Positions 714-10,100 of a stretch of 10,948 bases of DNA are shown one piece after another (the stretch's first letter is position 1; every line of letters begins with the position of its first letter). The DNA comes from a virus, in UHGV virus genome UHGV-0238331; one strand, written 5' to 3'. The notes beneath the pieces are model-generated. The model was not told where the DNA came from. It did not search any database and worked only from the letters and a program-made list of their open reading frames with translations. A program made the translations under genes and the position numbers.

Positions 714-1025
714 TTATGCTACAGAGGAACAAGCTGGCGGGTAATTCAGCGTAGTGAATACCGGCATCTCCATCTTGTATGCGTAATGATACTCAGCAGT
801 TGCTCCAGCAGACGCTTTCCAGCCAGGAAGCATCAAAATAGCATCAGCACAACGAAGCATTGCAAAGCAAATATCCATGTATTCACGTTGTGTCAGACCA
901 TTAGGCAAAGTGGCTGGATTCAAGACAGAGTGACCATGTCGTGACAAACGATCTGCCTCTTTATTAAAGGCGTCACGATTAAAGTTCTCATATCCCGTCA
1001 TTGGCCCGGCAATATAAATTTTCAT
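714..1025 (-). CDS. DUF4406-like (nucleoside 2-deoxyribosyltransferase-like fold) protein, 103 aa
   Basis: ORF begins MKIYIAGPMTGYENFN...VLNPA...ADAILMLPGWKASAGATAEY, the pattern I associate with DUF4406 proteins. Co-oriented and 41 bp downstream of Rz. Family assignment is from memory. Confidence 0.55.
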   Translation of the reverse strand: MKIYIAGPMTGYENFNRDAFNKEADRLSRHGHSVLNPATLPNGLTQREYMDICFAMLRCADAILMLPGWKASAGATAEYHYAYKMEMPVFTTLNYPPACSSVA

Positions 1026-2279: not shown

Positions 2280-3332
2280 TTATTTCCCCACCAGCTCGTT
2301 TATCTCTTTCACTGTCTGGTTAAACCGCTCTGACTCAAGCTCAACACCTAAGGCCCGACGCCCCAGCGCCATTGCTGCTTTTATTGTGGAACCGGATCCC
2401 ATAAAGAAATCAGCAACCAGATCACCAGGTCGACTACTGGCATTGATTATTTGCCGGAGCATATCCGCCGGTTTCTCGCACGGATGTTTACCCGGGTAGA
2501 ACTGAACGGGCTTATGCGTCCAGACATCGGTATAAGGCACGGAGACTGATACGGAGAAATAGCGCCGGAGAGATTTAAACTCATCCAGCAATTCAGAATA
2601 TTTGCGATTCAGTGAATCATAAGATGCCACCAGCTGGTGGTGTGGTTGTTCCAGTTGTTGTTCCTGAAACTTCTCTGCCGCTATACGGGAAAACAGTGCC
2701 TGTAACTTCCGATAGTCAGCCTCATTCGGCAACTGCCACTGACTGGCACCAAACCAGTGGGAAACCATATTTTTCTTACCTGTAGCTTCGGCAATTTGTT
2801 TTGCCGTTATACCCAGTTCGGCACGAGCATCCCTGAAATACGATATCAGCGGTGCCATTATGTGCTGTTTGAGTTCCCTTTCTTTTGCCGCATAGCCGTC
2901 ATTTTTGGGCTGGTATGGCCCCTGATAATGTTCGGCAAACAGAATGCGCTCTGTTGCCGGGAAATACGCCCGCAGGCTTTCCTTGTTGCACCTGTTCCAG
3001 CGTCCTGACGGCTTCGCCCAGATAATGTGATTCAGCACATTAAAGCGTTCACGCATCATAATTTCGGTGTCAGATGCCAGGCGATGACCACAGAACAGGT
3101 AAAGACTTCCGGCGGGCTTCAGTACCCGCCAGAACTGCGCCAGACACTGGTCCAGCCATTTCAGGTAATCATCGTCCCCCTTCCACTGGTTATCCCAGCT
3201 CTCGGGCTTCACTTTAAAGTATGGCGGGTCTGTGACTATCAGATCGACAGAGTTTTCCGGTAAGGTCTGGATAAATTCCAGGCAATCAGCGTTGATTAAC
3301 TCACAACTGGATATTTTTACAGTATTAGCCAT
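2280..3332 (-). CDS. DNA methyltransferase, beta-class order (DPPY before the SAM motif); N6-adenine or N4-cytosine
   Basis: 350 aa. Motif IV DPPY near the N-terminus (DLIVTDPPYF) and motif I near the C-terminus (DLVADFFMGSGST), with a roughly 200-aa central region presumed to recognise the target. Located between Q/pR' and the lysis cassette. Confidence 0.85.
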   Translation of the reverse strand: MANTVKISSCELINADCLEFIQTLPENSVDLIVTDPPYFKVKPESWDNQWKGDDDYLKWLDQCLAQFWRVLKPAGSLYLFCGHRLASDTEIMMRERFNVLNHIIWAKPSGRWNRCNKESLRAYFPATERILFAEHYQGPYQPKNDGYAAKERELKQHIMAPLISYFRDARAELGITAKQIAEATGKKNMVSHWFGASQWQLPNEADYRKLQALFSRIAAEKFQEQQLEQPHHQLVASYDSLNRKYSELLDEFKSLRRYFSVSVSVPYTDVWTHKPVQFYPGKHPCEKPADMLRQIINASSRPGDLVADFFMGSGSTIKAAMALGRRALGVELESERFNQTVKEINELVGK

Positions 3333-3908: not shown

Positions 3909-4730
3909 CTATCGCGTTACCCTCTTTAACTGCCGCTCCGCCCATGCCTCCTCAATGTCAAACCGAACCACCAACGTATCGTAAAAACGCTTCACTGATT
4001 TTTTCCACGTATCAAGAGTGATAGCGCTCGTCACTTTGCATATGGCATTAAACGCCTCTGTTGACGGCAATCTTTCATAGCCACGACCACCACAACGCTG
4101 GCAGTCTCTGATAACAGGCATACCACGTTTTACCGACTCTTCACGATGAATGGCGACACCACGCCCACGGCAATCCTTACAGGCGGTGGAGACCTCACCC
4201 TTTCCCCCGCATTCAGGACAGGCAACTTTTACCACTTCCCGGACTTTTTTCCATTCTTCCCAGTAAGACGGATACACACCCTTTGTACACTTTGCCCATA
4301 CCGGCGGTTTACCATCCGGATACTGGACCTTGTTTGTAAAAACTACGCTTTCAATAAATTTTTCCCCATGGCAACAAGGGCACTGCTTTTTACTCGCTGC
4401 GCTGCGGGCATAATCCTCAAAAGCATACGAAGCCATAATGCGCATCACTGCCGGTTTTATTTCTGCCGGAAGTTTTCTTAACGCCGCCACGCGATCGCAC
4501 TGACTTAATGCATAATCTGCCAGTAATTCTGTTGCCCGCGCCCTGTCATTCATACTAATGCCCATTTTCCCCAGGAACGCAGAAAATCCCATCTCAGCAC
4601 GGTTTTGTGTCATACCCTGCGCAGCCATCACATCAGTGATACTCAGCGTATCTTTTGACGTCGAGACGGATGCATCAGTCAGGCCAGGCGATTTTGGGGA
4701 GTAGTATTTCGGTAAATCTTCCAGCTTCAT
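3909..4730 (-). CDS. Q: Late-gene antiterminator Q (lambda Q family) with an expanded zinc-finger region
   Basis: 273 aa. Clear blocks of similarity to lambda Q (207 aa) from memory: YSPKSP, TDVMAAQGM, ASYAFEDYARSAA, CQRCGGRGYERLPSTEAF, FYDTLVV. Start forms an ATGA overlap with the rusA stop. Confidence 0.85.
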   Translation of the reverse strand: MKLEDLPKYYSPKSPGLTDASVSTSKDTLSITDVMAAQGMTQNRAEMGFSAFLGKMGISMNDRARATELLADYALSQCDRVAALRKLPAEIKPAVMRIMASYAFEDYARSAASKKQCPCCHGEKFIESVVFTNKVQYPDGKPPVWAKCTKGVYPSYWEEWKKVREVVKVACPECGGKGEVSTACKDCRGRGVAIHREESVKRGMPVIRDCQRCGGRGYERLPSTEAFNAICKVTSAITLDTWKKSVKRFYDTLVVRFDIEEAWAERQLKRVTR

Positions 4731-5107
4731 TTATTGACCTGCCCGTCATGCATTATTTCGTAAATTTTCACGCCCAGTCGACCACCAGGAACGAGCTGAC
4801 CGCGCACTATATTGATTTCGTCAAACTGCTCATCGTCGATAAGCAGTCCTGCATGTGTCAGTGCATCCAGTGGTGCCTTCAGGATATTGTCCAGGTCGCG
4901 GCGGCGCTTATCCGGTGGCTCTGCAATAATCCTGATTGCCAATCTACCGGACAGATTTAATTTCAGTCGCTGCTGGCGAACAATAAGCGCCACATCCCGG
5001 CGATAACGCTCACCGACTTTTGATACAAAATATACGCCACCACGACGGCGCCAGTAGGTGTTCACCGACGGCGGGTAAGGCAAAACAAATTCCATGCGCT
5101 CAGTCAT
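4727..5107 (-). CDS. rusA: RusA-family Holliday junction resolvase
   Basis: 126 aa; LPYPPSVNTYWRRRGG...PDKRRRDLDNILKAPLDALTHAGLLIDDEQ... matches the RusA signature including the conserved RRRDLDN motif. Confidence 0.9.
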   Translation of the reverse strand: MTERMEFVLPYPPSVNTYWRRRGGVYFVSKVGERYRRDVALIVRQQRLKLNLSGRLAIRIIAEPPDKRRRDLDNILKAPLDALTHAGLLIDDEQFDEINIVRGQLVPGGRLGVKIYEIMHDGQVNK

Positions 5108-6166
5108 TTATGCTTTCCACTTCAGGACACCCGAATTTCTCGCGTGCATTAAAAAACGAATCAGCAACAACAGCTGGCTGCCGTGTTTTTCTTCAAAATC
5201 TTTTACCCCGGCGTGCAGTTCGTTATGACATTTACGGCACAGCGGAATAACAAACAAATCGTCAGCCTTTGTTCCCATTCCTCCCAGTCCATGACCAATG
5301 ATGTGATGCGGATCATCTGCCTGATTGCCACAAGTCATGCATTTCTGCGTTTTTACCCAGCGCGTGTATACGGGCATCTCTTCCCGCTGTGGTTTCTGAC
5401 GCTGGAGATACTGAGCCGGAGAATCCGGATCAACGGCAATGCTGACCACCGTCTTTTCCTGTTGTGGGTTCTGTTGCTGGTGGACGTGAGGTGGTAGCGC
5501 AATATTTTTTGTGCGCTGCTTCAGTATGCTGGTAGCTGTCTGCTCTCCCGGAATGATGTCGCTTTCGCGGTATACGGAGAGGATTTTTTCACCCGGACGT
5601 TTCAGGATTCGACGCGCCATATTTTCGGTCATGGCATCCACCACATCATTGACAGCAGCCCAGCAGTACAATTCAGCCAGTGATAACTCCCGCTCCTGCG
5701 CGCCATTTATTGCGTGACGGATGGCGTCAATTATCCAGGTTGCCAGATTTTGTTGAGCAAGCTGCCCGAGTGATTCCGATGTCTGGTCACGCAGTTGGTT
5801 GTCGCAGTGCCAGCACAACACCATCGCGCCTGTACCGTAACGATGTATGACGGTTTCGCTGTGATGGTAGTCACCATGAGGCCACTGGCAGAATTTAACA
5901 TGACGCAGGAGCCAGTCAGACAGTGCACCAGCGCCGCCAGCAGCACGAATCACCCGTTCGTCGCTGAAAAATGGCAGCAATGATTTATCTTCCGCCAGCG
6001 GCTGGCGAACGGCAGGAACAACTCCGGACGGCAGACCGCGCATGCTTTTCGGTTCCGGCTCCACCAGCACTCGAGGGTTATGAAATACCTGCATGGATTC
6101 ACGACCAGGCTTAAAGACCACCAGCCCGAGTTCCGGTACCGGAACAGGTCGAAGTAATACCCGCAC
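5108..6166 (-). CDS. DUF968-like prophage protein with HNH-type Cys/His motifs (YdfU-like)
   Basis: 352 aa. C-terminal CMTCGNQADDPHHIIGHGLGG...CRKCHNELH and a second, similar central segment HHSETVIHRYGTGAMVLCWHCDN. The position just upstream of rusA/Q is typical for such nin-region genes. Family name is from memory, and the true start may be an internal Met. Confidence 0.5.
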   Translation of the reverse strand: MRVLLRPVPVPELGLVVFKPGRESMQVFHNPRVLVEPEPKSMRGLPSGVVPAVRQPLAEDKSLLPFFSDERVIRAAGGAGALSDWLLRHVKFCQWPHGDYHHSETVIHRYGTGAMVLCWHCDNQLRDQTSESLGQLAQQNLATWIIDAIRHAINGAQERELSLAELYCWAAVNDVVDAMTENMARRILKRPGEKILSVYRESDIIPGEQTATSILKQRTKNIALPPHVHQQQNPQQEKTVVSIAVDPDSPAQYLQRQKPQREEMPVYTRWVKTQKCMTCGNQADDPHHIIGHGLGGMGTKADDLFVIPLCRKCHNELHAGVKDFEEKHGSQLLLLIRFLMHARNSGVLKWKA

Positions 6167-6512: not shown

Positions 6513-6776
6513 TCACTCATCTTCAAAAGCAGAAAAACCAGCCTTAATCCCAGCTTCTTTCAGAGACGGCAACGATGTGACAAATTCATTTGCACGCAAA
6601 ATAAAACCATCCGTCACAAGCCCATCCACCAAATGAATTAACGCAGCTCCACTCTTCCTTTGTTGAGACTGTAAACATTTAATACGGCAGTGGCTGACAA
6701 TAGCGCCATTCTCAACGCGCACAGTATAGAGGCCATCTTCACTAAAAATTTCACGTAATTCTTCGATTTTCATCAA
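6513..6776 (-). CDS. Hypothetical protein, 87 aa
   Basis: ORF preceded by a GGAAGGA Shine-Dalgarno; first gene after the promoter-like element at 6850-6886. No family recognised. Confidence 0.45.
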   Translation of the reverse strand: MMKIEELREIFSEDGLYTVRVENGAIVSHCRIKCLQSQQRKSGAALIHLVDGLVTDGFILRANEFVTSLPSLKEAGIKAGFSAFEDE

Positions 6777-6849
6777 CAGAATCCTTCCAGATAAATAGCA
6801 CTCCCCTGTTCGGGGTCCATCCCTCTTCTCCCTGCGCGCTACTTAAGTA

Positions 6850-6886
6850 TTTTTGATTCTATTCCGGCACCATCCAAAACTTCAAA
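6850..6886 (-). promoter_or_regulatory. Candidate sigma70 promoter for the 87-aa ORF and downstream genes
   Basis: On the minus strand: TTGAAG (complement of 6880-6885), 18-bp spacer, TAGAAT (complement of 6856-6861). Lies immediately after the strong terminator and about 75 bp upstream of the ORF. Confidence 0.3.
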
Positions 6887-6896
6887 CGCGTTGAAA

Positions 6897-6923
6897 ATAA
6901 AAACAAAAACCCGCCGAAGCGGG
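6897..6923 (-). terminator. Strong rho-independent terminator ending the AT-rich moron transcript
   Basis: Minus-strand RNA has a CCCGC-UUCG-GCGGG hairpin (UUCG tetraloop, 6910-6923) followed by UUUUUGUUUUUAUUUU. Confidence 0.75.
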
Positions 6924-7138
6924 TTAAGTGTGGGTGCGTTGAGGATGCCTGACACATGAGAGGTGGCGAGGGATTTCTCCCCCGCCTGGTCTCTTACTCC
7001 TCAGATTCGTAAGCTGTGAAGACAGCGACCTCCGTCTGGCCGGTTCGGATTCGTACCTCGCAGAGGTCTTTCCTCGTTACCAGTGCCGTCACTATAATAG
7101 TGATGCATATGATGATTAGGGTTTAAACCTCTCCGAAA

Positions 7139-8164
7139 CTATAAAGAAGTATCGTTCAATTCAAGTTCAAATGTGCCTCCCTTACGAGGCATTACTTGAT
7201 CTACCATTTTTATAAAACGATTCCATCCATAACCGTTAGCAATTGCCAAACGTTGCATCATAACTAAAGAATGTAGATGTTGCGCTAACATTGGATTACC
7301 AACATCATCAGTAAGCCATTGATGCAATTTGTTCTTTCTTTGCCCATTAGATTGTTTCGGTGTTTTCTTTTCTAACTCCTGAAGTATTGAGTCACCTAAT
7401 CGCTCGTAAACAAGATCCCTCGTATAATGCGCTACTACACTAAAACGATTCTTACTCATGCCCGTCCAGGGCCAATTTCTTAACTTATAAATATTCTCAT
7501 AAAATTCATCAGGGAATTTCTTGGCCCAAGCAGCAAGCTCCTTGCTTATTATTTTATCAAGATATGCTTGCAATGCATCTTTTGGCCTAACTTCCTGATA
7601 TCCTGTTGCTTCATCCACTAAAGCGATGATGCCAACTTTAGCCAATGAACGTACCAAAATTTCAGCCTTTTTAGCAATTTCTATCTGATTGGTTTTTAAC
7701 GCACCATCCTCTCTAGCTTTTAAATATGCATCACAGACTAATGGGAGAATGGACGCATCATACCCTTCAAGTTCAACTCCAGAATTGCTCAAATACCGCT
7801 CTCGTTTGATCACCCCCATAAGATCTTGATTTATATATGGAACAAGATTGGCTGCATCCATAAAAGCAGGAAGTATGATCTCACCATCCAAGGTAGCTCT
7901 TACACCCCGACTTGGTCTACCCAAGGCTTTAAAAACCGATGATTGGGATATAATTCTTTTCCCGTTAGTAAGTACAGCAACATCCAGTTCAGTATCATTA
8001 ATCCTTAAAACCCCTTCAAACTGCGCTGATGGAAGACCACTTTTGATCCGTTGCCAACGCTGTTTCGCGGCATTTTTCGCGACTGCCACCCTTTCATCAG
8101 ATGACATCTTCTCTGCTCTAGCCCTGCCGCCTTTTGCCTGTGGTGAATTATTTTGATTTGACAT
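7139..8164 (-). CDS. AT-rich moron gene: 341-aa protein of unknown function, possibly P63C-domain-like
   Basis: Long ORF in a visibly AT-rich block (GC not computed). Start chosen at MSNQNN (ATG at 8164) because GAGG lies about 7 nt upstream; the track's upstream start adds 12 residues. Basic N-terminus (KGGRARAEKMSSDERVAVAKNAAKQRWQRIK), then IALVDEATGYQ and KFPDEFYENIYKLRNWPW motifs that I associate from memory with P63C-domain phage proteins. Confidence 0.6.
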   Translation of the reverse strand: MSNQNNSPQAKGGRARAEKMSSDERVAVAKNAAKQRWQRIKSGLPSAQFEGVLRINDTELDVAVLTNGKRIISQSSVFKALGRPSRGVRATLDGEIILPAFMDAANLVPYINQDLMGVIKRERYLSNSGVELEGYDASILPLVCDAYLKAREDGALKTNQIEIAKKAEILVRSLAKVGIIALVDEATGYQEVRPKDALQAYLDKIISKELAAWAKKFPDEFYENIYKLRNWPWTGMSKNRFSVVAHYTRDLVYERLGDSILQELEKKTPKQSNGQRKNKLHQWLTDDVGNPMLAQHLHSLVMMQRLAIANGYGWNRFIKMVDQVMPRKGGTFELELNDTSL

Positions 8165-8316
8165 AAAGACCTCATTTATTGGCATGTATTTCCATATCAT
8201 GTATCATTTAGCAAGCATAAACAACCCCAATACTTGCTAAACTTAAACCATTAACATTGTTAATCAGTATCCTATCTAGCAAATATTCTGTCCGTTAATT
8301 AGTTACGTAGGACACT
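8165..8316 (-). promoter_or_regulatory. AT-rich upstream region of the moron gene, with dyad symmetries
   Basis: Inverted repeat TTAGCAAG...CTTGCTAA (8208-8215 and 8233-8240) and palindrome TTAACATTGTTAA (8251-8263) in the 150 bp upstream of the moron start. Candidate promoter and operator; no confident -35/-10 assignment. Confidence 0.3.
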
Positions 8317-8715
8317 TCACCGCATGATATCCTCCGCGCTTATCAGCCCATTCTGATTCAGATACTCCATCGCCTTATCAGGCAAGCTGCTTAAGCTATT
8401 GGCGTACTTTAAGCAGTGAGCCAGTCGTTTAACCCACATTGTTAATTCGCCAACCTGATTACTGGATGCTAGTGGATTGTCAGCTTTACCCAGTCCTTCT
8501 GATATCACCGGGACTGGCGGGGCAGTGAATAAGGCCTGAATTTCATAGTTCGGCCTGTCGTTACAATCCTCTTTTGTCGGTACATATTTCCAGTCACCAA
8601 CCCACATCTTCTCCTGAAAGTCCGTAACGCCCTTTTTCACATAGCGATATCGCCATGCAACTGGTTTTTCCTGCCCTACCGTTTCATGTACTTCCTGATA
8701 ATTAATCTCGCTCAT
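8317..8715 (-). CDS. Hypothetical protein, 132 aa
   Basis: ORF whose ATG overlaps the stop of the upstream 58-aa ORF (ATGA at 8712-8715). No family recognised. Confidence 0.5.
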   Translation of the reverse strand: MSEINYQEVHETVGQEKPVAWRYRYVKKGVTDFQEKMWVGDWKYVPTKEDCNDRPNYEIQALFTAPPVPVISEGLGKADNPLASSNQVGELTMWVKRLAHCLKYANSLSSLPDKAMEYLNQNGLISAEDIMR

Positions 8716-8888
8716 TCATCGCCCCACTCATCACAATATGCTTCGACAGGTGTTTTTCCTGCTTCGTAGTCATCACGCCAGGCTTCAGCCTCAGCAGCAC
8801 TTCCACCACGTAACTCTGCATAATCCATTAACAGTTCATGCCATTCTTCAAAACTGACGTTGTATTTAGTTGAACCAAAATCAGCCAT
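8712..8888 (-). CDS. Small highly acidic protein, 58 aa (not in the ORF track)
   Basis: My translation: MADFGSTKYNVSFEEWHELLMDYAELRGGSAAEAEAWRDDYEAGKTPVEAYCDEWGDE, with 16 Asp/Glu against 4 Lys/Arg. Its start overlaps the stop of the 60-aa ORF (ATGGCTGA) and its stop overlaps the start of the 132-aa ORF. Confidence 0.45.
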   Translation of the reverse strand: MADFGSTKYNVSFEEWHELLMDYAELRGGSAAEAEAWRDDYEAGKTPVEAYCDEWGDE

Positions 8889-9063
8889 TTTGTTCTTCCT
8901 CCTCGTCTTTTATTTCGTGATATGAGTAATTGCAGTAGTTAAAGAAAATTTCTTTTGCTTCGTCATGAATTTCATCTGGTGTTGCGTCATCGTCCACTTC
9001 GAATACATCCTCAAAATCTCCACCAGCTATTCCTGTTTCAATAATTATTTTGAACTTTCGCAT
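8881..9063 (-). CDS. Small highly acidic protein, 60 aa
   Basis: MRKFKIIIETGIAGGDFEDVFEVDDDATPDEIHDEAKEIFFNYCNYSYHEIKDEEEEQNG, with 19 Asp/Glu against 5 Lys/Arg. Preceded by a stable hairpin. Confidence 0.45.
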   Translation of the reverse strand: MRKFKIIIETGIAGGDFEDVFEVDDDATPDEIHDEAKEIFFNYCNYSYHEIKDEEEEQNG

Positions 9064-9207: not shown

Positions 9208-9681
9208 CTATTTCATAAAAATAATCCAGTGGGTTTTATCGTTTTTTCCTGTTCGTTGACCGATAACAGGTTTTCTGTCGGTCAGTACCAATATCTGGCG
9301 AACAGGTATTTGCGTTTCATTCCATTTAAAAATCAGAACGCCGGATGGACGCAACACACGAAAGGCTTCTTTAAATCCCTGCCGCAAATCATCACGCTAG
9401 GTATCTTTATTCAGCCGTCCATATTTCTTTCCCATCCAGGCGTTATCACCAACACGCTCAAGATGCGGAGGGTCGAATATAACCATCGAAAAAGATGCGT
9501 CTGCAAATGGTAGTGCACGAAAATCAGCTATCAGATCAGGACTGATAATCAGACATCGTCCATCACACAATGTGTGCTCTTCCTTTCTGATATCGCTAAA
9601 TATCGCCAGGTCGTCATTCTTATTGAACCAGAACATGCGACTGCCACAGCACATATCAAGAATGGTTGCCGGTGCACTCAC
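9208..9681 (-). pseudogene. Small phage Dam-like SAM-dependent DNA methyltransferase interrupted by an in-frame amber (TAG) codon
   Basis: The 94-codon ORF (GTG start at 9681) carries motif I (ILDMCCGSR) and motif IV (DPPH) and stops at TAG (complement of 9397-9399). The same frame then runs 58 more sense codons (RDDLRQGFKEAFRVLRPSGVLIFKWNETQ...) to a stop at 9208-9210, giving about 153 codons in total. Confidence 0.6.
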
Positions 9682-10100
9682 TGCGCTACCTCCTGAAAAT
9701 TACCCTGATAGAAAGCCAGTACACGCTGCATAGCTTCGCTCTTCCGGCACTCGCGACAGATTATATTCAGGCGCCTGTCGTAGCGGCGTATTTCTCCGTC
9801 TGGTAATGACCAGATAAGGTCCGGATCAACCGCAGATGGTTTCTTCGGCTTTGCCCTTGAGAGCTTTTTACGGGCATTTTGCCAGTCCTTACGCGCCTGT
9901 TCAGACGGGAATAACCCGTAATCAGAGTTGTATACATCGCCACTGGCAACCAGCTCTCTGGCCAGAACGCTCATCAGATATCTTGTTGCCCCAGTTTTAG
10001 TTTCCAGTTGTCGTAACGTCTCGCGCCCACTCTGGCGTACGAGTTCAACAACCTGCCCTTTAATTTTTTCTCGCTCTTCTTGTGTAAAAACTTTTGCCAC
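9678..10100 (-). CDS. ren: Ren-like protein (homolog of lambda Ren), 140 aa
   Basis: GTG start 4 nt after AGGAGG. C-terminus NIICRECRKSEAMQRVLAFY resembles lambda Ren NLVFKECRQSAAMKRVLAVY, and a central TGAT-containing helix region is also similar. Comparison is from memory. Confidence 0.6.
   Translation of the reverse strand: MAKVFTQEEREKIKGQVVELVRQSGRETLRQLETKTGATRYLMSVLARELVASGDVYNSDYGLFPSEQARKDWQNARKKLSRAKPKKPSAVDPDLIWSLPDGEIRRYDRRLNIICRECRKSEAMQRVLAFYQGNFQEVAQ

Follow-up and report, generated by a model that had tools for sequence, protein, structure and literature searches.

The 10,948-nucleotide (nt) viral genome UHGV-0238331, referred to here in its full length as the window, contains a P63C-family gene encoding 341 amino acids (aa) that sits among lambdoid phage genes and, judged from sequence comparisons, is horizontally acquired accessory cargo rather than a core lambdoid gene. 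We see about an even chance that its product is a single-protein anti-phage defense or exclusion factor. The case for a defense or accessory role is circumstantial and draws on the cargo of insertion sequence (IS) elements that also carry P63C genes, on the neighbors of the gene in other prophages, and on the likeness between its N-terminal domain and the corresponding part of BstA, an abortive-infection protein encoded by prophages (Owen et al. 2021, PMC8585504). A first-pass annotation, made from the sequence alone, had described this part of the window as an AT-rich single-gene moron of foreign origin with its own promoter, operator, and terminator. That the gene is inserted single-gene accessory cargo is borne out by its variable presence and by the solitary, prophage-slot, and IS contexts of its relatives. 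The picture of a clean promoter-gene-terminator unit has to be given up, since the terminator and the 240 bases that precede it belong to a truncated hok locus.

The P63C gene and its predicted protein

An open reading frame (ORF) scan combined with Pfam placed the P63C gene at 8164..7139 on the minus strand. The earliest in-frame ATG would give a product of 353 aa (8200..7139); the start was assigned to M13 of that frame, at 8164, because a Shine-Dalgarno sequence, GAGG (8170..8173, minus strand), lies 5 nt ahead of the ATG at 8164-8162, because PGAP calls the same start (WP_050439438), and because the homology of a Cronobacter ORF reaches its limit there. This is the one large 341-aa ORF of the first-pass annotation. 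Its possible P63C-like C-terminal region is now a firm assignment, as Pfam P63C (PF10546) matches aa 202 to 293 with 110.8 bits (cut-off, 26.1 bits; E = 5e-32). PHROG 2384 (function unknown) matches the protein over its full length (E = 6.3e-138). Bro-N, KilA-N, and ANT gave no Pfam match in the window protein, and NCBIfam gave no meaningful match.

The protein begins with a basic, helical N-terminus (aa 1 to 45) whose net charge of +7 agrees with the basic region noted at first pass. An alpha/beta domain (approximately aa 41 to 190) follows, which resembles the N-terminal, KilA-N-like domain of BstA and ends in the motif ALVDEATGYQ..R, and the all-helical P63C domain comes last. In a broad alignment, the motif G-I-x-A-L-x-D-E-x-T-G-x-Q-x-x-R (residues 178 to 193), just ahead of the Pfam P63C region, is near-invariant. 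AlphaFold2 returned a pLDDT of 88.7 when given 95 diverse sequences and 68 with a shallow alignment; the predicted structure consists of a helical hairpin (residues 8 to 42), an alpha/beta part (~45 to 155), and a long helical region that includes both the motif and the P63C domain. Candidate functional residues in a HEPN-like R-x4-H motif (R276..H281) and the histidines of QHLHS were rejected for lack of conservation in the broader alignment.

A low-GC cassette inserted into a hok/sok locus

The exact P63C gene is present in 6 of 5,426 Escherichia coli genomes, and the exact region is 99 to 100% identical in prophages of six complete E. coli genomes (e.g., STEC005 and 00_3230). At the upstream (left) junction (8317..8329, minus strand), other E. 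coli prophages match the preceding phage gene only to 8329. At the downstream (right) junction (7121..7138, minus strand), homology to the Cronobacter ORF stops at 7137 and hok homology begins at ~7121. In strain ATCC 25922, the same slot continues from the upstream phage gene into an intact hokD. Because homology of the upstream gene ends at ~8329 and the ATCC 25922 slot runs to intact hokD, we place the inserted cassette at ~8329..7137 on the minus strand (~1.2 kb), and the comparison indicates that it was horizontally acquired.

The GC content of the P63C ORF is 0.401 (0.316 at third codon positions, GC3) and that of the 152-nt spacer upstream of it (8165-8316) is 0.322, compared with 0.478 for the window and 0.48 to 0.53 for the flanking sequence. 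The block described as AT-rich at first pass has to be shortened accordingly: the stretch 6897-7138 has a GC content of 0.512 and hence is not AT-rich (0.51 for 7122..6897). Small ORFs near the cassette are likewise AT-rich (8881-9063, GC 0.361, and 6513-6776, GC 0.417, both on the minus strand), and therefore low GC alone does not single out the P63C gene. The foreign origin that had been proposed agrees with the low GC and GC3 of the gene taken together with its rarity in E. coli and with the composition of its homologues, whose ORFs are lower in GC than the flanking DNA by 5 to 19 points in all hosts examined.

Downstream of the cassette, window positions 7095..6780 are 92 to 98% identical to hok/mok loci (hokD, hokW) in 4,705 of the 5,426 E. 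coli genomes, and matches of the same type occur in many Stx and lambdoid phages. When the window is compared with an intact hok locus from a PPompW prophage, homology runs from about codon 10 of hok, near 7121. Ahead of this, the hok promoter, the leader, the mok start, and sok of the intact locus are replaced in the window by the end of the P63C gene. What is retained (7121..6780) is the C-terminal coding part of Hok, the 3′ fold-back region, and the UUCG terminator. Alignment to the intact locus delimits a remnant of 42 hok codons (6994..7122, minus strand; TLIIICITIIVTALVTRKDLCEVRIRTGQTEVAVFTAYESEE*), the frame of which has a TAA at 7125-7123 and no ATG, GTG, or TTG ahead of the transmembrane segment. 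The sok model (Rfam RF01794) found no match in the window at E ≤ 1, and as a positive control it scored 103.9 and 106.7 bits in the intact loci L002 and L019. By these comparisons, hok/sok in the window is a dead remnant and not a working toxin-antitoxin locus. A functional Hok was rejected on the grounds that start codon, mok, and sok are all missing. In an identical prophage (NZ_CP074967), PGAP annotates a "Hok/Gef family protein" of 40 aa that starts at an ATC codon, a call that we find unconvincing.

The UUCG-tetraloop terminator that the first-pass annotation had seen behind the gene is present as a stem-loop at 6925-6908 followed by a T-run (minus strand; terminator scan). Because 7095..6780 matches hok/mok loci at 92 to 98% identity, however, it is the terminator of the hok mRNA, within a 3′ untranslated region (UTR; 6897..6993, minus strand) that is 92 to 98% conserved, and not part of a P63C unit; it now lies downstream of the P63C gene, which has no other terminator behind it. 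Similarly, the promoter-like element that had been thought to restart the neighboring phage genes can be found, as a predicted TTGAAG-18-TAGAAT match at 9 of 12 positions (6856..6885, minus strand). It follows the hok terminator, has the same sequence in PPompW, and belongs to the conserved phage sequence downstream of hok. A candidate isrK small RNA (Rfam RF01394) at 6985-6904 was rejected at 25.9 bits against a gathering threshold of 50. An equally weak isrK match (19 to 26 bits) recurs in the 3′ UTR of hok loci (L002:3111-3192 and L019:4283-4363), and the sub-threshold match in the window may reflect only the hairpins and terminator of the hok 3′ end.

Relatives of the P63C gene in bacteria and prophages

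A word-indexed search returned 6,622 homologues at E ≤ 1e-5, and an exhaustive search returned 4,755 clusters at 50% identity (E ≤ 1e-3), 1,092 of which had E ≤ 1e-30. The full-length architecture is retained at 54 to 60% identity from Acidobacteriota to Burkholderiales, and homologues with 38 to 58% identity are found in Actinomycetota, Cyanobacteria, Chloroflexota, Planctomycetota, and candidate phyla. P63C was the sole domain found in all 95 family members scanned. The only name given to these proteins in any source was "P63C domain-containing protein," and a literature search for the family found no paper. Against enteric homologues, nonsynonymous divergence (dN) was 0.06 to 0.20 while synonymous sites (dS) were saturated, a pattern that points to strong purifying selection on the P63C gene. 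Because dN is this low against a saturated dS, copies that stand alone can be regarded as functional genes.

Several relatives are solitary genes of low GC content flanked by housekeeping genes. The copy in Cronobacter has homology to the window limited to the ORF, and further solitary copies were found in Serratia, in Pseudoxanthomonas between lexA and ubiB, and in an uncultured bacterium beside dnaB. In Salmonella lambdoid prophages, the gene is found between Q and the lysis genes, on the strand opposite the phage operon, beside HigBA or HicAB and a DNA methylase. In Enterobacter and in phage SEN34, it lies antisense in the nin region by BstA and/or DinI. One Enterobacter lambdoid prophage has a bstA homologue (L023:5709-6635, minus strand) that is divergent from the P63C gene (L023:7001-8029, plus strand), beside dinI; the Enterobacter homologue is 88% identical. 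A Burkholderia P2-like prophage has the gene in a cargo slot beside HicAB. From its position and orientation, the gene in other prophages is a reverse-oriented moron beside BstA and toxin-antitoxin pairs. Neighborhoods of homologues, whose examination for variable cargo the first-pass annotation had proposed, include prophage cargo slots and the interior of IS elements.

The same annotation had named as a counterindication that homologues might turn out to be a conserved core lambdoid gene. A full-length paralogue, 49.7% identical, does exist in the nin region of the Stx2 phage 933W (NP_049495), where it is co-oriented with the early operon, but it is not core and has no known function. Its position differs from that of the window gene, as it lies between a DNA methylase gene and roi (L025:4459-5508; NC_000924 17532-18581), and, unlike the window gene, it has no upstream dyad of the kind described below (it is not among the matches of the dyad scan). 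Approximately 49 of the E. coli genomes searched carry a 933W-type paralogue.

When 574 neighboring ORFs from 79 loci were clustered, no conserved partner gene was found besides transposases and small antisense ORFs, and a two-gene system was rejected for this reason. In 12 loci (L009:8013-8255, minus strand, and 11 others), an antisense ORF of ~80 aa overlaps the gene at its 3′ end and has no Pfam or NCBIfam match; it may be an artefact of the conserved coding sequence on the other strand.

A conserved dyad upstream of the P63C gene

An operator-type inverted repeat, AGCAAGTA-N13-TGCTTGCT (8210..8238, minus strand), lies 45 nt upstream of the ATG. Its full arms (8207-8218/8230-8241) are 12 nt each, with 11 of 12 positions complementary. 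Within the window alone, this large dyad is marginal, its score being reached by 27 of 1,000 dinucleotide shuffles. Alignment of seven enteric-clade copies (the window, Cronobacter, SEN34, Enterobacter, two Salmonella, and Serratia) showed that all seven have an upstream inverted repeat, AGCAAG(C/T)A followed after 13 to 14 nt by TGCTTGCT, in upstream DNA that is otherwise unrelated. A wider scan, in which the spacer could vary from 6 to 22 nt and each arm could have at most one mismatch, found (A/T)GCAAGCA-N-TGCTTGC(A/T) upstream of the gene in 59 of 113 P63C loci, equal to 54 of 100 distinct upstream regions, where our own estimate of the chance expectation is ~0.1 loci. The usual spacer is 12 to 14 nt, and the dyad usually ends 40 to 67 nt from the ATG. 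Dyads of this type span phyla, including copies in Actinomycetota and Cyanobacteria, and are kept in copies without a transposase gene; many non-enteric copies have an extra TGCAAGCA ~23 nt downstream, near the −10/+1 position. On this comparative evidence, the large dyad is a genuine conserved element. It resembles a protein operator, because the sequence of the arms is itself conserved while the spacer is free, and the P63C protein would be the obvious candidate to bind it.

Both of the dyads that the first-pass annotation had considered as promoter and operator are present, but deep conservation is a property of the larger one. The second, a small palindrome, ATTAACA-N-TGTTAAT (8250..8264, minus strand; arms 8250-8256/8258-8264, 7 of 7 positions), is not conserved in relatives and was rejected as a regulatory site. 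An internal TGCAAGCA in the ORF (7565-7572) was set aside as coincidental, as it occurs at those codons in 4 of 67 distinct homologue ORFs.

The right arm of the dyad contains a −35-like TTGCTA (8214-8209), and in every enteric copy this arm supplies TTGCT(G/T/A) as the −35. The enteric relatives have a −10 of GATAAT, TACAAT, or GATACT at 16 to 17 nt after TTGCTN. At the corresponding position in the window (8186..8192, minus strand), where relatives have a good −10 hexamer, the sequence is degenerate (GAAATA or AAATAC), and a simple sigma-70 consensus scan found no promoter on the gene's strand upstream of the P63C gene. The window promoter has probably been weakened, and in this prophage most transcription of the P63C gene probably comes from the early rightward operon. 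The idea that the gene has its own promoter and operator holds for the conserved dyad and its −35 and is doubtful at the −10.

A conserved operator would also suit a different protein, namely, an anti-repressor/Bro/KilA-type phage regulator, made early, that sways the choice between lysis and lysogeny, either in its own prophage or in competing ones, and has no part in host defense. Such a regulator would be expected to look much as the window gene does in some respects: the gene is co-oriented with the early operon both here and in 933W (beside roi there), the P63C domain is named for Mx8 p63, which is annotated as anti-repressor Ant, and the P63C part of the window protein matches PHROG 2899, "anti-repressor Ant" (E = 3.9e-8). 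A Foldseek search of predicted viral structures likewise returned Mx8 p63 as the significant named match (E = 2.9e-10), with further, weak matches to Bro, KilA, and antirepressor proteins. We nevertheless regard this explanation as unlikely. Intact, selected copies occur in many phyla with no phage nearby, between housekeeping genes or in 2.3-kb insertion sequences, and because these copies are under purifying selection far from phages, it is improbable that the protein depends on a cognate phage repressor for its function. The antisense, moron-like orientation of the gene relative to the phage operons of Salmonella, Enterobacter, and SEN34 prophages is a further point against it.

Carriage by IS1-like and IS1595 elements

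In ~26 of 80 species-representative loci, a divergent transposase of ~295 aa is encoded directly upstream of the P63C gene. This transposase has an HTH_38 domain and a DDE domain, and its best NCBIfam match is to the IS1 family with 48 to 64 bits; as this falls short of the curated cut-off for IS1 (100 bits), we classify it as a distant relative of IS1. A further ~7 of the 80 loci have an IS1595-family transposase upstream (207 bits against the NCBIfam IS1595 model). Terminal inverted repeats with the consensus GGTAGTGTCTCAGTTTGAA enclose the transposase and P63C genes together, and 17 of 20 IS1-like loci have perfect 8-bp target-site duplications, the elements being 2.3 to 5.2 kb long. Ends of the form GGnnnTG fit the IS1 family (ISfinder). 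Examples are L009:5960-8322, L052:8995-11318, and L125:123-2438, and the overall span of IS1-like elements is 2.1 to 5.2 kb. A clean IS1595-type element (L077) measures 2,169 bp and encloses the gene between 23-bp repeats, with the duplication TTTTATTT. These arrangements indicate that IS1-like and IS1595 elements carry the P63C gene from one phylum to another.

Some copies without a transposase keep the right-end repeat, as in Pseudoxanthomonas. The window has no transposase and, in scans allowing ≤3 or ≤4 mismatches, no 19-mer resembling a terminal repeat, so that an IS remnant around the window gene was rejected; terminal repeats were not found in its enteric relatives either.

A reciprocal search of metagenomes with the transposase returned 80 loci. 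Among these were 45 complete elements of 2,083 to 4,846 bp, 39 of them with perfect 8-bp duplications; none of the 45 consisted of a transposase only, and all carry cargo. Among the cargo is a helix-turn-helix and M78-peptidase protein matching RmrA of RosmerTA (PADLOC E = 3e-139), present with a partner of ~160 aa in 11 to 13 elements. Fic proteins matching SoFic (E = 6e-47) were carried by five elements and HigB toxins by four, and a dGTPase (E = 1.5e-119) and PD-Lambda-2_B (E = 6e-42) were also identified. Other cargo included nSTAND NTPases, a methylase-Mrr fusion, MazF, HicB, ClpP-like proteases, and GIY-YIG proteins. BstA was not found as cargo of these elements in the loci examined. The P63C gene itself occurs in 5 of the 56 loci with enough upstream sequence (9%). 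Sharing this cargo slot with validated defense and toxin-antitoxin genes, which make up most of the cargo, is the strongest argument that we have for placing the P63C gene in their functional class. Our literature search found no description of such IS1-like elements as carriers of defense genes.

Adjacency to a transposase might instead mean that P63C is an accessory or regulator of transposition, which would bind the divergent spacer and control transposase expression or target choice and of which the prophage copy would be a stranded relic. A transposase directly adjoins the gene in ~40% of the 80 species-representative loci, two related transposase families (IS1-like and IS1595) are involved, and operator sites fall within the 90- to 150-bp divergent spacer, as this explanation would have it. 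We consider it very unlikely, however, since only 5 of 56 elements of the transposase clade have the gene, which makes it an optional passenger and not transposition machinery (an obligatory partnership with the IS1-like transposase was rejected at this frequency), and the rest carry unrelated defense or toxin-antitoxin cargo. Copies that lack a transposase, the window's included, are moreover intact, with dN far below dS, and the dyad is retained where the transposase gene is absent. Equally improbable is a selfish, toxin-like addiction gene that stabilizes its carrier in place of hok/sok, for although the gene occupies the hok/sok slot, shares its IS cargo slot with HigB, MazF, Fic, and RosmerTA, and has toxin-antitoxin neighbors in prophages, it has no conserved partner but transposases among the 574 clustered ORFs, no recognizable toxin fold, and nothing pointing to an unstable antitoxin.

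Other features of the window

All genes of the window are on the minus strand and are arranged like a lambdoid early-right/nin region with the late genes behind it. A DUF977 gene (10100..9678) is followed by several small ORFs, and a phage ORF (8715..8317) directly precedes the cassette. Further downstream are genes for DUF968/HNH (6166..5108), RusA (5107..4727), antiterminator Q (4730..3909), and an N6/N4 DNA methylase (3332..2280; PF01555, E = 5e-43), and then those for holin, lysozyme, and Rz and a DUF4406 gene. The methylase gene (2280-3332, minus strand) fills the Q-holin slot, where Stx phages have stx, and a methylase resembling it adjoins the P63C gene in a Salmonella prophage (L021). 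The DUF4406 gene (714-1025, minus strand; nucleoside 2-deoxyribosyltransferase-like) comes after the lysis cassette, and DUF4406 genes directly adjoin the P63C gene in Salmonella prophages L020-L022.

Proposed function and significance

The P63C family profile aligned with a single Enterobacter BstA_C-domain sequence over 125 columns. Comparison of the family with a 40-sequence BstA profile by hhalign gave an E value of 6.8e-5 and a probability of 63.5% over 138 columns (family residues 41 to 189), compared with E values of 0.07 to 0.21 over 17 to 34 columns for unrelated control profile pairs. BstA and the P63C family have in common the motifs VL-(D/E)NG-x-x-(V/Y)L-(S/T)Q-x-G and LA-x-x-G-...-(D/Y)EA-x-(G/K)-YQ. 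The N-terminal domain of BstA has been assigned as KilA-N-like (Owen et al. 2021, PMC8585504), and our comparison suggests that the N-terminal domains of BstA and of the P63C family are probably homologous. Bro-N (from 933W Roi) and a KilA-N protein were tried as relatives of the family profile and gave no signal.

The comparisons described above show that the cassette landed in the nin-region hok/sok slot and took out the 5′ half of that locus, including the hok start and the mok/sok region; what remains is a hok stump with no start, and its terminator now follows the P63C gene. The P63C protein would bind its own TGCAAGCA-type dyad and repress its own promoter. As a defense or exclusion factor, it would, like BstA, engage foreign DNA during replication and stop the infection, and the dyad may also serve as a cognate site restraining the protein on its own element. 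We find a specifically BstA-like mechanism rather doubtful. The broader proposal, that full-length P63C is a very widespread new single-gene anti-phage system, related to BstA by a common DNA-binding N-terminal domain, controlled or restrained by a TGCAAGCA dyad, and spread among bacterial phyla by a hitherto undescribed group of IS1-like "transporter" elements that ordinarily carry defense and toxin-antitoxin genes, is one that we advance tentatively, as plausible but somewhat short of an even chance.

Several observations weigh against a defense function of this kind. The similarity to BstA is moderate, at a probability of 63.5%, and covers the N-terminal domain only, while the C-terminal half is P63C and not BstA_C (PF26567). 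Co-conservation is the sole ground on which we infer binding of the dyad by the protein. A defense gene needs to be expressed in the lysogen, yet both here and in 933W the P63C gene points the same way as the early operon, and the −10 in the window is degenerate. Plain toxin-antitoxin genes use the same IS slot, so that the slot cannot separate defense from addiction. No effector, catalytic, or toxin fold could be recognized in the protein. PADLOC-DB v2.0.0 had no match for the window protein, in keeping with the first-pass annotation, which had found no characterized defense family that fits; among the 95 diverse family members, PADLOC gave a single match at chance level (E = 0.0064).

To our knowledge, and as far as the literature can be searched, the combination of a BstA-like N-terminal domain, a P63C C-terminal domain, a conserved dyad, and IS1-like carriage alongside defense cargo is new. 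If a defense role is true, an uncharacterized family with thousands of members, already present in Stx-type and Salmonella prophages, becomes a testable defense family. With TGCAAGCA-N13-TGCTTGCA, the proposal also names a concrete site for regulation or self-immunity, and the link to BstA offers a mechanistic starting point. The IS1-like elements, 2 to 5 kb long with 8-bp duplications, suggest insertion sequences as a vehicle for single-gene immunity, which would help to explain isolated low-GC defense genes between housekeeping genes. In this prophage, the insertion has also destroyed the maintenance toxin hok.

Comparison with known systems

The closest parallel is BstA. Like bstA, the P63C gene is a single gene for ~300 to 340 aa that travels as accessory cargo of lambdoid or P22-like prophages, with a short DNA element 5′ of the gene (the cognate aba in BstA, the dyad here), and the two genes are divergent neighbors in the Enterobacter prophage. 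The elements themselves differ. BstA aba is 63 bp long, has direct CCCGCC repeats, and overlaps the start codon (PMC8585504), whereas the P63C element is formed by an inverted repeat and lies 45 nt before the ATG. Abortive infection with a block of phage DNA replication is the phenotype of BstA; for the P63C family, a defense phenotype is a prediction. All listed full-length BstA homologues carry PF26567, the exception being one fragment of 187 aa, and because the C-terminal halves are different domains, we place the window protein outside the BstA family.

Compared with the hok/mok/sok loci of lambdoid prophages (hokD, hokW), window positions 7121..6780 correspond to the 3′ two-thirds of such a locus. 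A working locus has, in addition, the promoter, the 5′ leader, the mok start, the sok RNA gene, and the hok start codon, all of which the window lacks.

A third comparison is with transporter IS elements, that is, IS1- and IS1595-family elements with passenger genes, a concept that reportedly goes back to ISfinder and Siguier et al. in 2009. Relatives of the window gene are such passengers, in elements with GGnnnTG ends and 8-bp duplications, although the window copy itself has neither a transposase nor a terminal repeat.

Finally, Mx8 p63 and other Bro-N/KilA-N-type proteins share with the window protein the P63C domain and an order of modules in which a DNA-binding N-terminal module precedes a helical C-terminal one. 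Iyer, Koonin, and Aravind are said to have described, in 2002, a domain-shuffled family of "anti-repressor-like" phage proteins of this Bro-N/KilA-N type. Compared with the Mx8 p63 group, the window protein has a distinct and tightly conserved full-length architecture (PHROG 2384) that is found outside phages as well.

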